In this document: in pieces, positions 895-59,750 of the stretch
Position numbering within the stretch: the stretch's first letter is position 1
Layout: every line of letters starts with the position of its first letter
Virus record (IMG/VR): IMGVR_UViG_3300023171_000011
Coordinates: 10,859-74,858 of that record
Direction: 5' to 3' (one strand)
Length of the DNA: 64,000 nt
Source of the DNA: a virus
Program-made: the position numbers and the translations under genes
Notes under the pieces: model-generated
What the model was told of the DNA's origin: nothing
The model's input: the letters and a program-made list of their open reading frames with translations, nothing else
Database searches by the model: none

Positions 895-1252
895 AGATTT
901 TAAGGACATTGATTTACTAATGGAGAGCTTAGATAAAATATTGTTCAATCAAGGTGAAGAAGTAGAGATAGTTTCAGGAGGACAAGTTACTGTAGATAAA
1001 GAAACAGGACAAAAGTATGGCGCTGACTATTTAGGTGAATGGTATGCAGCTACTGTCAGGCACTGCAAATTGACTATATTCCCTGCTGACTGGAATACGC
1101 ATGGTAAATCAGCAGGTCCCAAGCGGAATAAACAAATGGCAGAATACTCAGATGCTTTAATAGCATTTTGGGATGGTAAAAGTAAAGGAACAGCTAACAT
1201 GATTGAAGAAGCGAAAAAACAAAACTTAAAAATCAGAATAATTTATTATTAA
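869..1252 (+). CDS. SLOG-family (DUF2493/YspA-like) nucleotide-binding protein
   Basis: MKVIIAGGRDF, IVSGG, GAD, PADW, AGPKRN, AFWDGKSKGT motifs; ATG at 869. Confidence 0.8.
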   Translation: MKVIIAGGRDFKDIDLLMESLDKILFNQGEEVEIVSGGQVTVDKETGQKYGADYLGEWYAATVRHCKLTIFPADWNTHGKSAGPKRNKQMAEYSDALIAFWDGKSKGTANMIEEAKKQNLKIRIIYY

Positions 1253-1282
1253 TTTTACATTTCACATTTAAACACTAACATT

Positions 1283-1813
1283 TTGAAAACAAAATTCAAC
1301 AAAGTAAAGCTCGACAAGAGCGGACAGGCGGTAGTATTTGGAATCACCCAAACAAGCCCATTAGGTAGCTCAGATGTATTGACTTCCAAAGCTCCGGCAT
1401 TGACCATGGATAAGCCACCACATAAAGACTTATCAGACGCATTTGTAGACCTTATACCGCACTTACTCTTTAGTTCCGAGTTATTCCCTATCATGACGAC
1501 AAATAAGGACTGGTACGAAAGCAGAGAGTTCCTGGAAGAGAAAATCTTCACCGGCATTACGGTTCATGAGCTGCAGATTCTAAACCAAGAAGAGACGAAG
1601 ATCAAGTTGATCGGCAGCAAGACGACTACGCTTGGAGAGGTTGTTCCTTTGCAGTCGGTGATCATTGACATGGAAGCGGATGGACCAGACAAGTATCTTT
1701 TGATTACAGTACTGTCAGAGGTCGTAGAAAGAGTGATCTCTGAGGCGGGGCTATATTACTCCAATCAGAAGTATGGATCGTTTGTAGAGCAGCAAGCATT
1801 AGATTTGGTTTAA
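1283..1813 (+). CDS. hypothetical protein
   Basis: 176-aa ORF, co-oriented and tightly packed; TTG start. Confidence 0.6.
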   Translation: MKTKFNKVKLDKSGQAVVFGITQTSPLGSSDVLTSKAPALTMDKPPHKDLSDAFVDLIPHLLFSSELFPIMTTNKDWYESREFLEEKIFTGITVHELQILNQEETKIKLIGSKTTTLGEVVPLQSVIIDMEADGPDKYLLITVLSEVVERVISEAGLYYSNQKYGSFVEQQALDLV

Positions 1814-2682: not shown

Positions 2683-2715
2683 TTTGGCTGGATTAAAATA
2701 ATTGTCTTATACTTG
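2683..2715 (+). promoter_or_regulatory. promoter of leader peptide/tRNA operon
   Basis: TTTG (2683-2686), 21-nt spacer, TATACTTG (2708-2715; one mismatch to TAnnTTTG). Confidence 0.6.
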
Positions 2716-2719
2716 CATC

Positions 2720-2788
2720 ATGAAATTACTAAACATACATCAGTGGCCCAATCAATTTGACATTATTGTCGAGCGGTTTACTGTGTAG
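2720..2788 (+). CDS. putative attenuator leader peptide MKLLNIHQWPNQFDIIVERFTV (22 aa)
   Basis: ATG 5 nt after -7 box; ORF ends 20 nt before a terminator; 3' part complementary to the terminator 5' arm; not in ORF track. Confidence 0.65.
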   Translation: MKLLNIHQWPNQFDIIVERFTV

Positions 2789-2808
2789 TTTTAATTATAA
2801 AATTATTT

Positions 2809-2841
2809 AGGCCTCTTGACAAAAATCAAGGGGCTTTTTTT
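2809..2841 (+). terminator. attenuator terminator upstream of tRNA array
   Basis: aggcctcttga-caaaaa-tcaaggggctt 11-bp stem plus T7. Confidence 0.85.
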
Positions 2842-2847
2842 ATGCAC

Positions 2848-2918
2848 AAGGGTTTACGATAATGGTAGTCTACGGGTCTCCAAAACCTAGAGTAATGGTT
2901 CGAATCCATTAACCTTTG
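2848..2918 (+). tRNA. trnW: tRNA-Trp(CCA)
   Basis: aagggtt/aaccttt acceptor; loop ct-CCA-aa; aatgg-ttcgaat-ccatt T arm. Confidence 0.85.
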
Positions 2919-2923
2919 CAAAT

Positions 2924-2997
2924 AGTGCAATATATCAATTGGTTAGATTACCGCATTTGGGATGCGGAGGTTCCGAGTTCGAGTCTCGGTTGCGCTA
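2924..2997 (+). tRNA. trnP: tRNA-Pro(TGG)
   Basis: agtgcaa/ttgcgct acceptor; ccgca-tt-TGG-ga-tgcgg; ccgag-ttcgagt-ctcgg. Confidence 0.9.
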
Positions 2998-3001
2998 CGT
3001 A

Positions 3002-3066
3002 GTAGGAAGAGCGGTTCGAGTCCGCAGGATCTTTGATCTGATAGTGTATCTGGCTAGCACACCTGC
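3002..3066 (+). ncRNA. circularly permuted tRNA-like RNA (T arm, closed acceptor hairpin, D arm; no anticodon loop)
   Basis: gtagg(3002-6)/cctgc(3062-6) closing stem; gcgg-ttcgagt-ccgc T arm; ggatc-ttt-gatct hairpin; ta-gtgt-atctggcta-gcac D arm. Confidence 0.7.
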
Positions 3067-3073
3067 GTTATTT

Positions 3074-3145
3074 TACTGCCTAGTGTAATGGTAAGCACAA
3101 CAGACTTTGATTCTGTTAGTCGGAGTTCGAATCTCTGGGTGGTAA
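3074..3145 (+). tRNA. trnQ: tRNA-Gln(TTG)
   Basis: tactgcc/ggtggta acceptor; acaga-ct-TTG-at-tctgt; cggag-ttcgaat-ctctg. Confidence 0.9.
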
Positions 3146-3146
3146 C

Positions 3147-3219
3147 GGTGATTCTGTCCGTAATGTAACGGAGCCGGTCTGTGAAATCGGTTATCAGGGT
3201 TCAAGTCCCTGGTTTCACA
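3147..3219 (+). tRNA. trnH: tRNA-His(GTG), atypical
   Basis: ccggt-ct-GTG-aa-atcgg; caggg-ttcaagt-ccctg; G-1 present but A73, two T-T acceptor mismatches, D loop lacks GG. Confidence 0.7.
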
Positions 3220-3225
3220 CTAAAT

Positions 3226-3297
3226 ATTTCTGTACGTCAACGGATAGACTACGAAGCTACGAACTTCGGAATAAGGTTTCGAATCCTTTCAGAAATA
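3226..3297 (+). tRNA. trnR: tRNA-Arg(ACG)
   Basis: atttctg/cagaaat acceptor; cgaag-ct-ACG-aa-cttcg; slightly irregular T arm. Confidence 0.8.
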
Positions 3298-3302
3298 CAA
3301 AT

Positions 3303-3382
3303 GCCCTGCTGACTTATGCAAACTGGTACAGCTACAAGTCTTAGAAACTTGGTTTTTCTCGGTTCGAGTCCGAGGTGGGGTA
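3303..3382 (+). tRNA. trnL: tRNA-Leu(TAG), atypical (short variable loop, long D region)
   Basis: gccctgc/gtggggt acceptor; caagt-ct-TAG-aa-acttg; ctcgg-ttcgagt-ccgag. Confidence 0.75.
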
Positions 3383-3388
3383 CTAAAT

Positions 3389-3462
3389 ATGCTGTTAGCT
3401 CAGTCGGTTAGAGCGCCACTCTTATAAGGTGGAAGTCAAAGGTTCAAATCCTTTACGGCATA
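3389..3462 (+). tRNA. trnI: tRNA-Ile(TAT)
   Basis: atgctgt/acggcat acceptor; gctc/gagc D stem; ccact-ct-TAT-aa-ggtgg; aaagg-ttcaaat-ccttt. Confidence 0.9.
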
Positions 3463-3477
3463 CTTGTTAAATAGTCT

Positions 3478-3509
3478 GAGGCAGCAGTCGTGATGATAGC
3501 TGCCTTTTT
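3478..3509 (+). terminator. terminator of tRNA operon
   Basis: gaggcagc...gctgcctt stem plus T run. Confidence 0.75.
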
Positions 3510-3746
3510 ATTGTCGAAATAGATCGTAAATTATCCAAGAAATCCCTTATTCCTACCAAAACGTCAAAATAAGCCTGTTTTCAAAAGCTTAATTCGACGA
3601 AATCTTATTTGATGGTCATTTGATAGACCTAAGTATTAAAGTGTCTTATATCGCTTTAAAATCACTTAAATGGGTAATTTTTATTTGATTGGCATTCGGA
3701 AAGAAAAGAAAGTGAAAATAAATGTTGACAGTATGAAAATTAAATT

Positions 3747-3866
3747 TACATTTGTGATGTAATGGCAAGATATTTGGAAGTAGTGAGCTGAATATCGTAA
3801 AGTCAATAAAGGCATTAAGAAACTGCCCCTGGAGAAACTCACTACCTTCAGGGGTTTTTTATTTTT
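3747..3866 (+). promoter_or_regulatory. promoter plus structured leader (two hairpins with complementary loops, second is terminator-like) of the replication operon
   Basis: TACATTTG 3747-54; hairpin 3769-3796; hairpin 3825-3855 plus T tract; loops gtagtgag/ctcactac. Confidence 0.7.
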
Positions 3867-4154
3867 ATGGAAAATTTACAAGTAATCTGTCCAAAATGTA
3901 GTTCCTCTAATTATAGAGTTGAGCAAAGAGGTATTCACAAAACAGCATTCTGCCAGGAATGTGATGCTTACATCAAGAATCTCCCACAAGGCGTACCGAC
4001 AACACTTTTCTTTGGCAAGTACAAAGGCCGTACAATCGAATCTATGATGGAGAAGGATGAAGTGGGTTATCTTGTATGGTTGCTTACTAAGCCGGACTTA
4101 AAACCAAACTCCCTGCGTACAGCAATTGAGAAACATTTAATTAGCGGTAAGTAG
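3867..4154 (+). CDS. zinc-ribbon protein with C-terminal FGKYKG (DUF3820-like) module
   Basis: CPKC...CQEC; FFGKYKG...GYLVWL. Confidence 0.6.
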   Translation: MENLQVICPKCSSSNYRVEQRGIHKTAFCQECDAYIKNLPQGVPTTLFFGKYKGRTIESMMEKDEVGYLVWLLTKPDLKPNSLRTAIEKHLISGK

Positions 4155-4156
4155 TT

Positions 4157-4492
4157 ATGGCGGGTATACAAAAAAATAACGGATACATTTTCCCAAAATG
4201 GCTACCGCAAAAAATAAGTGCAAGCAGGATAAGATCAAGCATGGATAAAAAAGATGCACTAAAGTGCTTTAGAAATTCATCAAGCGGTTTTATTAAAAAA
4301 AATGATCTTCGGGTTTATTTATTTGAAAAGTTTAAAAATAAATGTGTTAAGTGCTCTTCAATGGATAAAATACAAATTGATCATATAATTTCGGTCAAGC
4401 GGTGTTTTGATAATCAATTATTCGATTTCTGCAATACTGAAGAAAATCTACAAGTTTTATGCATGAAGTGTAATACTACTAAATTACCCTGA
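4157..4492 (+). CDS. HNH endonuclease
   Basis: CVKC...IDHII...ENLQVLCMKCN. Confidence 0.85.
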   Translation: MAGIQKNNGYIFPKWLPQKISASRIRSSMDKKDALKCFRNSSSGFIKKNDLRVYLFEKFKNKCVKCSSMDKIQIDHIISVKRCFDNQLFDFCNTEENLQVLCMKCNTTKLP

Positions 4493-4493
4493 T

Positions 4494-5228
4494 ATGGCTA
4501 GGCAAGAAAGAAATAGCGTAGATTATTTTCCGCACACAGTTACTCACGGAAGAAAGATGTTTTATCTTAGGTCAAAGTATAAGAATGATGGTTATGCTGT
4601 ATGGTTTATGCTGATTGAACAATTAGGTAGAACAGAGTATCACTATCTTGATTTATCTGATGATATTCAACTTATGTATTTGTCAAGCGAATTTATGGTA
4701 AGCGAACAAGTGCTGAAAGATATTATTGATATACTTGTAAAATTTGGTGATTTTGATGATGATTTATGGAATAATCATAAGGTTATTTTTAACGAAAAAT
4801 TCAATCAAAGTATATCTGATGCTTACAAGAAAAGAAATAATGACTGCATTTCAAAAGAGAACCTTTATAAGCTATTAGGGTTCCCTAATGAAAGTAAAAA
4901 AACCCCTAATAAGCCATTAAGTACAAGTGAAGTATCCGGTAGTACACAAAGAAAAGAAAAGGATATAAAAGAAGATAATATATATAGATTTTTTGATCAT
5001 TTAAGTATAACTGTTGAGGAGGTTGAATCTCTGAAAAGTAAAGGTTATACTCAGATACAAATTGACGATATACTTGACGCAATCGAAAATAGTAAAAAAA
5101 ATAAAAATTATAAGTCACTTCCTAAAACTGCTTTGATTTGGCTAAAGCGAAACGGAGAGCCGGCACAACAAAATGATAAACCCTTAAATCCACACGATGC
5201 AATTCTTAAAACCTTTAACCAACGATAG
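4494..5228 (+). CDS. replication initiator (DUF4373/Lin1244-like N-terminus)
   Basis: MAR...VDYFPH, GYAVWFMLIE; low-complexity linker; directly upstream of primase-helicase. Confidence 0.7.
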   Translation: MARQERNSVDYFPHTVTHGRKMFYLRSKYKNDGYAVWFMLIEQLGRTEYHYLDLSDDIQLMYLSSEFMVSEQVLKDIIDILVKFGDFDDDLWNNHKVIFNEKFNQSISDAYKKRNNDCISKENLYKLLGFPNESKKTPNKPLSTSEVSGSTQRKEKDIKEDNIYRFFDHLSITVEEVESLKSKGYTQIQIDDILDAIENSKKNKNYKSLPKTALIWLKRNGEPAQQNDKPLNPHDAILKTFNQR

Positions 5229-59660: not shown

Positions 59661-59677
59661 TGTGATTTAAGTTTGTG

Positions 59678-59750
59678 GAATGAAGGGCAGATTCGAACTG
59701 CCGACCTGTGGTTTAGTCACCACTGCTCTAGCCTCTGAGCTACTCCATTC
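59678..59750 (-). tRNA. tRNA-like gene with 6-nt anticodon loop (undetermined)
   Basis: gaatggag/cttcattc 8-bp acceptor; gctc/gagc D stem; gtggt-GACTAA-accac; ggcag-ttcgaat-ctgcc. Confidence 0.75.

Follow-up and report, generated by a model that had tools for sequence, protein, structure and literature searches.

Leader-peptide attenuators of amino-acid operons include trpL, hisL, pheL and leuL, as well as the multivalent leaders thrL and ilvGMEDA. In late control of the lambda type (pR'–tR' with Q), a promoter and a strong terminator lie within ~100–200 nt of each other, ahead of the controlled genes. The tRNA genes of phages, in turn, are usually seen as constitutive codon-usage helpers or as spares against tRNA-cleaving defences, and to our knowledge their regulation is largely unknown.

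The nearest published system to the locus described here is trn of Anabaena PCC 7120, a silent tRNA operon induced under translational stress (PMC8421152), whose repressor, TrcR, occupies direct repeats that cover the -10 box and the start site (PMC10272220). No paper describing tRNA genes under leader-peptide control, or the leaders of phage phiCbK discussed below, was found in the literature searched.

The locus comprises a promoter, a 22-codon ORF, an intrinsic terminator and, 6 nt further on, an array of tRNA genes. It has in common with the trp/his-type attenuators the promoter-proximal short ORF, the intrinsic terminator and a mutually exclusive antiterminator, the 5' strand of which lies in the 3' part of the ORF and is sequestered by an upstream hairpin, so that the position of the ribosome would pick the fold; the thrL and ilvGMEDA leaders likewise read several amino acids. 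Unlike the leaders of amino-acid operons, it stands before tRNAs and not biosynthetic enzymes, has a single codon per amino acid, is predicted to act as a leaderless mRNA, is phage-borne and matches no Rfam leader family. With the Anabaena trn operon the proposed switch would share an accessory tRNA array that is off until translation is impaired, but trn is cellular and controlled by a repressor, whereas here a leader ORF and a terminator of a phage would do the work. The several promoter–terminator modules in the early region of the window make a lambda-like layout, in which, however, the ORF and the antiterminator have no role; neither a factor resembling Q, N or NusG nor a nut-, put- or qut-like site was identified. 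T-box riboswitches are also tRNA-responsive terminator/antiterminator switches; sensing in the present locus, if any, would proceed via the ribosome. A T-box as such was rejected, there being no Rfam match and no specifier or T-box elements in a leader that, at ~120 nt, is too short.

The reading favoured here, to which a probability of roughly 40% is assigned, is that the locus is a ribosome-coupled leader-peptide transcription attenuator gating the phage tRNA operon.

Setting of the locus

The window, i.e., the 64,000 nucleotides of DNA that were analysed, is part of a 74,858-bp IMG/VR virus record and has a G+C content of 38%. The probable source sample is a leaf-litter metagenome, the only one in a search of sequencing runs whose reads contain the stretch; runs with a small share of it cover parts of the tRNAs and positions 3759–3900, and the search listed no RNA run that contains it. 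A Shine–Dalgarno-like core is found in 6 of the 63 genes of the window and is absent in 57, and many genes are preceded by TAnnTTTG, the -7 box of Bacteroidota sigma-A (PMC6847099, PMC9723704). Judged by these signals, the phage appears to have a Bacteroidota-type host.

The locus sits in the early and replication region of the phage, where the neighbouring genes code for a NinB-like protein, a SLOG protein, a DUF3307 membrane protein, an HNH endonuclease, a replication initiator and a primase-helicase. All features of this region given below are on the + strand. The early region has, within 1.8 kb, four strong terminators on the same strand, with T runs at ~2142, 2835, 3505 and 3855. The one at 2118–2169 has a 13-bp stem of -18.3 kcal/mol, a stability reached by 0 of 200 shuffles, and is followed by TAtaTTTG 3 nt before the ATG at 2169 of the DUF3307 gene, which thus has an apparently leaderless start directly behind a terminator. 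Just 5' of the promoter of the locus there is an 11-bp hairpin (2639–2667; fold -15.8 kcal/mol, z -2.3). At this site the relatives have a terminator with a T run, so the hairpin probably represents a degenerate terminus of the transcription unit before it. Elsewhere in the window, ARAGORN calls a tRNA at 59677–59749 (- strand), its identity not given, with the two-base anticodon 'ct'.

Promoter and start site

The early promoter (2676–2715) comprises AAATAAATTTG as the -33 region (2676–2686), a spacer of 21 nt and a TAtaCTTG -7 box (2708–2715). The Bacteroidota-type reading is TTTG (2683–2686)–N21–TAtaCTTG (2708–2715), and the same promoter can be read as a sigma-70-like site, TTGGCT–18–TATACT, with a score of 9/12. 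The -7 box departs from the consensus by a C at the nearly invariant T(-8). The promoter belongs to the AAATAAATTTG...TAnnTTnG family, which drives the conserved leader of a 95-aa gene in four relatives (L005, L013, L014 and L015).

For Flavobacterium, the published start site lies 4–5 nt beyond the -7 box, which itself occupies -12 to -5 (PMC6847099). The ATG at 2720 is placed 4 nt past the -7 box, matching the published spacing, and the start site predicted from promoter geometry is A2720 or T2721, so that the leader mRNA would be leaderless. Leaderless mRNAs constitute ~5% of flavobacterial mRNAs, and leader-peptide attenuation has been reported in Flavobacterium (PMC9723704). An identical CATCATG layout begins a real gene, coding for an HTH protein, in the relative L010.

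No other promoter is seen for the tRNA array: the distance from the T run to tRNA-Trp is only 6 nt, and the upstream unit ends in its own hairpins. A candidate promoter within the terminator (TTGACA, 2816–2821) was rejected; its -10 is poor and its start site would land inside tRNA-Trp.

The leader ORF and its codons

The predicted leaderless leader ORF (2720–2788) codes for the 22-codon peptide MKLLNIHQWPNQFDIIVERFTV, has no Shine–Dalgarno sequence and ends with the stop TAG at 2786–2788. It lies between the promoter and the array, and promoter, ORF, terminator and the beginning of the array are all inside 170 nt. The earlier note on this DNA had proposed this succession of promoter, 22-codon ORF, terminator and array 6 nt on, and every element was found where it had been placed.

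The putative sensing codons are codons 4–10 (2729–2749), CTA AAC ATA CAT CAG TGG CCC, for Leu, Asn, Ile, His, Gln, Trp and Pro, and codon 12 is CAA, a second Gln codon. That six amino acids of the array fall in seven consecutive codons, as had been noticed, is correct, and such clustering is infrequent. As controls, all 423 ATG-started ORFs of 15–40 codons in the six frames of the genome were used. Of these, 0.9% contain six distinct array amino acids within seven codons and 0.7% contain five distinct codons that are strictly cognate, whereas six codons with extended wobble are reached by 0.2%, this being the leader itself; among ORFs drawn from the codon usage of the phage, the cluster is reached by 7e-4 to 3e-5. 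All seven array amino acids are present in the leader peptide (p 0.012–0.021), while the share of array amino acids over the whole ORF is ordinary (0.52 vs 0.40, p 0.16). All these chance statistics were chosen post hoc, on a pattern picked from many flagged in the genome.

The sensing codons are single, with no tandem runs, and the Asn codon breaks the series. As had been conceded from the outset, CCC is not cognate to Pro(UGG) and CGG is not cognate to Arg(ACG). The Arg codon is, moreover, codon 19, a position where, according to the masked folds described below, stalling would favour termination.

Terminator, antiterminator and RNA folds

The intrinsic terminator (2808–2841) consists of a stem-loop at 2809–2836 with 11 pairs (5 of them G-C) and a 6-nt loop, followed by T7 at 2835–2841, and has an energy of -14.8 kcal/mol. 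Its 5' arm, 2808–2822, is at the same time the 3' strand of the antiterminator, whose 5' strand (2766–2780) lies in the last third of the ORF. The two strands form a duplex of -17.0 kcal/mol with 11 Watson–Crick pairs, 3 G-U pairs and 1 mismatch. The pairing at 14 of 15 positions including G-U, which had been read from the letters, is thereby confirmed, and it exceeds chance: for the duplex of the upstream 84 nt with the terminator 5' arm, 0.27% of shuffles attain -17.0 kcal/mol, as do 1.3% of genomic segments. An antiterminator-like partner is absent at seven other terminators of the genome.

The small hairpin that had been proposed as a competitor is present, but with slightly different borders, 2756–2762/2767–2773 (feature 2756–2773; 7 bp, 2 of them G-U) in place of 2757–2762/2767–2772. 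It forms the top of a long 5' hairpin (2724–2796) that sequesters the antiterminator strand and, from this position, would act as an anti-antiterminator. The free full-length RNA folds into this 5' hairpin and the terminator, with -32.2 kcal/mol and z -3.2. When the full fold is considered, engaging the terminator arm brings an ordinary net gain in energy, one that 47% of shuffles reach, because the antiterminator strand is itself held in the 5' hairpin. Since an attenuator needs a sequestered antiterminator strand, this ordinary gain speaks neither for nor against the model.

The effect of a translating ribosome was modelled by masked folds, in which the nascent RNA 2720–2826, representing the decision point, was folded with a ribosome footprint at each codon; the calculation is purely thermodynamic. 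With the A site at codons 2–12, the structure of lowest energy is an antiterminator of 11 pairs, which begins to erode at codon 13 and has disappeared for codon 16 to the stop. Codons 4–10 and the CAA codon 12 are all inside the stall zone that would permit read-through. The ribosome-free fold at the decision point also favours the antiterminator, so the default state would depend on the order and kinetics of folding.

A search of Rfam 15 with the leader gave no family at the gathering score, the best match being the trpB motif (28.4 bits vs 59). The weak matches (trpB, VrrA, ncr1575) align only to the hairpin, the AU-rich linker and the terminator. Repeats that would connect the leader with the array were not found. 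A kissing-loop topology of the kind seen in the leader before the 95-aa gene was considered and discarded, the terminator loop CAAAAA being without a partner.

The tRNA array

The tRNA operon (2848–3463) comprises Trp(CCA), Pro(UGG), a spacer, Gln(UUG), His(GUG), Arg(ACG), a UAG element and Ile(UAU), and tRNA-Trp starts at 2848, 6 nt past the T run. Seven tRNAs had been listed originally. ARAGORN and Rfam call six, Trp, Pro, Gln, His, Arg and Ile-UAU, all canonical, whereas the seventh, 'Leu(TAG)', is a non-canonical tRNA-like element at ~3303–3382 that scores below threshold (21.9 bits vs a cut-off of 29). It has good D, anticodon and T arms but lacks a clean acceptor stem: three G-U pairs and what looks like a 5-nt insertion make the stem irregular. 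A diverged copy of the UAG-anticodon element, with 12 differences, occurs in sequencing run X2. The 75-nt spacer between tRNA-Pro and tRNA-Gln (2999–3073) contains a T-arm-like GGTTCGAGTCC and gives no tRNA call. The operon ends with its own terminator (3478–3512; -16.4 kcal/mol, z -2.7).

Related phages and origin of the cassette

Some 80 relatives were found via the primase and the downstream 95-aa gene, and only one of them, L015, carries an array at this site. L015 (OFRB01000707.1, positions 1–960), which comes from a metagenome, is truncated 176 nt upstream of its array; this array occupies the same hotspot but comprises tRNAs for Trp, Phe, Cys, Ser and Tyr. Its tRNA-Trp is abutted by a 15-bp hairpin of -21 kcal/mol that resembles the hairpin of the window, with the tail UUUCUCAUUU and not a clean U run. 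In the 176 nt present upstream, there is no segment complementary to the hairpin arm (p 0.12), and the sole mini-ORF, MNTTMTIYLSSK, has no Trp, Phe or Cys and matches the array with p 0.48. The expectation that leader codons would co-vary with array content in related phages was thus not borne out by this single case, limited to 176 nt upstream, in which neither a codon match nor an antiterminator is seen. The segment 415–507 of L015 resembles an extra tRNA-Ser(GCU) missed by both ARAGORN and Rfam.

Wider searches returned little. A blastn search of GenBank phages gave no homologue of the leader, only matches to tRNAs. A scan of IMG/VR for the terminator gave 0 matches, as did scans for a degenerate peptide-level pattern of codons 1–10 and for the L015 hairpin, and a scan of genome contigs gave three MAG contigs, none with an array. 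A pattern for the tRNA-Trp family retrieved two unrelated single-tRNA loci, L090 and L091. The latter, an unrelated viral contig, has at 1165–1330 (- strand) a TAtaTTTG promoter, a ~55-nt leader, a 9-bp hairpin and a single tRNA-Trp, with no U run.

A contig of run X2 is identical to the window over 3759–3900; upstream of this part, a promoter of the same type, ...GATTAAAATAAAACCTTATACTTGCAGA, is joined straight to 3759 without 2720–3758. This indicates that 2720–3758, with the leader ORF, the first terminator, the tRNAs, the second terminator and a new promoter, was inserted as a cassette. From this junction, the left edge of the cassette appears to coincide with the start site, and the leader ORF is a part of the cassette and not of the ancestral promoter.

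Other promoter–leader–terminator modules

The next unit (3725–3866), which marks the right end of the inserted cassette, has the promoter TAcaTTTG (3747–3754), a conserved leader of ~105 nt and, 8 nt before the ATG at 3867 of the 95-aa gene, a hairpin with a T run that resembles a terminator (3823–3862). The leader extends over 3755–3866 in the window, 1640–1730 in L005, 3000–3095 in L013, 875–965 in L014 and 835–928 in L015. This module is conserved in five relatives without tRNAs, while its mini-ORFs are not conserved, which argues that this phage group uses gates independent of a leader peptide. The leader forms two hairpins, the second of which carries the T run; their loops read GTAGTGAG/CTCACTAC in the window vs GTAAGGC/GCCTTAC in the relatives, with complementarity kept. 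Changes on both sides suggest a functional loop–loop contact. Moreover, L005 carries at 1450–1545 a further promoter–short RNA–terminator unit with no gene directly behind it.

Search for codon-matched leaders in phiCbK and other phages

Caulobacter phage phiCbK (JX100813.1) has tRNA arrays at 47.8–52.6 kb, and its segment 47000–53000 was analysed. Two leader ORFs, of 45 and 32 codons, lie at 2541–2678 and 4342–4440 of this segment. In the 45-codon ORF, 15 of the best 16 codons are for Pro, Lys, Leu, Ala or Ser; behind it are a terminator, ~13 nt and then tRNA-Pro, Pro, Lys, Lys, Leu, Leu, Leu, Ala, Ser and Ser. The 32-codon ORF (MSKTYRQFVRQIQVVRNIR...) reaches 10/16 codons and is followed by a terminator and the tRNAs Tyr, Phe, Val, Ile, Ile, Val, Gln, Gln and Ile. 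The scores of these leaders are reached by 0 of 377 small ORFs of the phage, and cross-pairings of leaders and blocks are ordinary. Two further observations were made in phiCbK: a 92-aa ORF before the Trp/Gly/Gly/Glu/Asp block ends with DEAEAEAEDDGWRD, and a tRNA-Tyr at ~4545–4629 of the segment was missed by ARAGORN.

The window and phiCbK have in common a tRNA block closely preceded by a small ORF, which uses the amino acids of that block, and by an intrinsic terminator behind the ORF; in the window and in block 2 of phiCbK, no more than ~13 nt lie between this terminator and the first tRNA. The codon-matched leader architecture is thus real in at least one public phage, phiCbK, and is shared in outline by the window. 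The two differ in that the phiCbK leaders repeat each amino acid many times, whereas the window has single codons in an ORF whose overall composition is ordinary. The sequences are not similar, and the host phylum and the promoter type are different. Of the proposed class of tRNA-leader attenuators, phiCbK is the stronger example.

Five unselected phages with 22 tRNA blocks were surveyed (DAC19, AhP_Mru1, AM24, Peregrin and vB_Edu_21C1). None of the 22 blocks has a codon-matched leader (mean rank 0.55, p 0.39) or a strong terminator abutting the first tRNA, and in DAC19 there is no hairpin or ORF before its three tRNAs. A crude leader-versus-array matrix of 29 blocks in eight loci gave no general signal outside phiCbK. 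The null result in the five phages, taken together with the positive one in phiCbK, indicates that the architecture is rare and lineage-specific.

Proposed switch and alternative explanations

In the proposed attenuator, a transcript would start from the early promoter on the A of the ATG at 2720, judging by promoter geometry, and a 70S ribosome would presumably translate the leaderless ORF. When the ribosome, in step with RNA polymerase, is at codons 16–22 or the stop, it would cover 2766–2780, the hairpin 2809–2836 with its U7 would form, and transcription would stop 6 nt before tRNA-Trp. A ribosome held in codons 2–12, by a stall that we infer, would leave 2766–2780 free. The codons of this zone are one each for Leu, Ile, His, Gln, Trp and Pro, plus the second Gln. 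The free strand would pair with the terminator 5' arm and the polymerase would read into the tRNA genes, so that slow decoding would lead to more phage tRNA.

The comparison with trp/his-type attenuators drawn in the earlier note is supported in part, by the layout, by a codon cluster and an antiterminator that both exceed chance, and by the logic of the masked folds, and is weakened by the lack of a homologous leader in the searches described above. Its further proposal, that the leader senses the very tRNAs it controls, is plausible and thinly supported: the codon cluster agrees with it, while the codons are single, two are non-cognate, and comparison of relatives lends no support, L015 being unmatched. 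A connection with host defences that deplete or cleave tRNAs is something we purely infer. It is improbable that the leader is a multi-input sensor in which any one codon suffices, so that any tRNA cut by a defence would cause a stall and the production of replacement tRNAs, and that the locus is an inducible mobile counter-defence cassette, one of a wider undescribed class.

Among the alternatives, a conditional or leaky terminator that acts independently of the ORF is somewhat less likely than the attenuator. Read-through would then depend on an antitermination factor of the phage or host or on RNA structure alone, or be a fixed leak keeping tRNA output low, and the codons of the ORF would be a coincidence. 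The four strong terminators within 1.8 kb agree with such a view, as do the extra short unit of L005 and the hairpin before tRNA-Trp in L015, which stands there without ORF logic. The conserved module before the ATG at 3867, with its complementary loops and unconserved mini-ORFs, agrees as well, and the tRNA leader could be read through by the same mechanism as these peptide-independent gates. This explanation, however, leaves aside the codon cluster, the antiterminator complement, which is specific to the terminator at 2809–2841, and the coincidence of an ATG at the predicted start site with an ORF end over the antiterminator strand; nor was an antiterminator protein recognised among ten neighbouring genes.

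The insertion history raises the question whether the arrangement is a mere by-product, with no regulatory role, of an insertion of 2720–3758 that parted the leader of the 95-aa gene from an ancestral early promoter, with the hairpin as a left insulator and the rest due to chance. The run X2 relative, which joins the same promoter type to 3759 without the cassette, the ~80 relatives without arrays at this site and the different array of L015 at the same hotspot all fit this account, but an insertion is compatible with function, and the codon cluster and the antiterminator, both beyond chance, would be left unexplained; we regard it as improbable. Quite improbable, too, is a separate short gene, for a 122-nt small RNA or for the 22-residue peptide itself, with the tRNAs transcribed by incidental read-through or from an unrecognised promoter. 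Small RNA genes typically consist of a promoter, ~120 nt and an intrinsic terminator, the fold is stabler than that of shuffles (z -3.2), and L005 has a similar short unit at 1450–1545 with no gene directly behind. Yet the 6 nt before tRNA-Trp are too little for a promoter, none is seen within the leader, and neither an Rfam family nor a homologue of the RNA or the peptide was found.

Implications

If the ribosome-coupled attenuator is real, its ribosome-sensing terminator would provide direct feedback from decoding speed to tRNA supply. Such feedback logic is known for amino-acid and synthetase genes, and none was found for tRNA genes in the literature searched. The locus is a compact test object of ~170 nt and, together with phiCbK, makes the idea testable in Bacteroidota and alphaproteobacterial systems.
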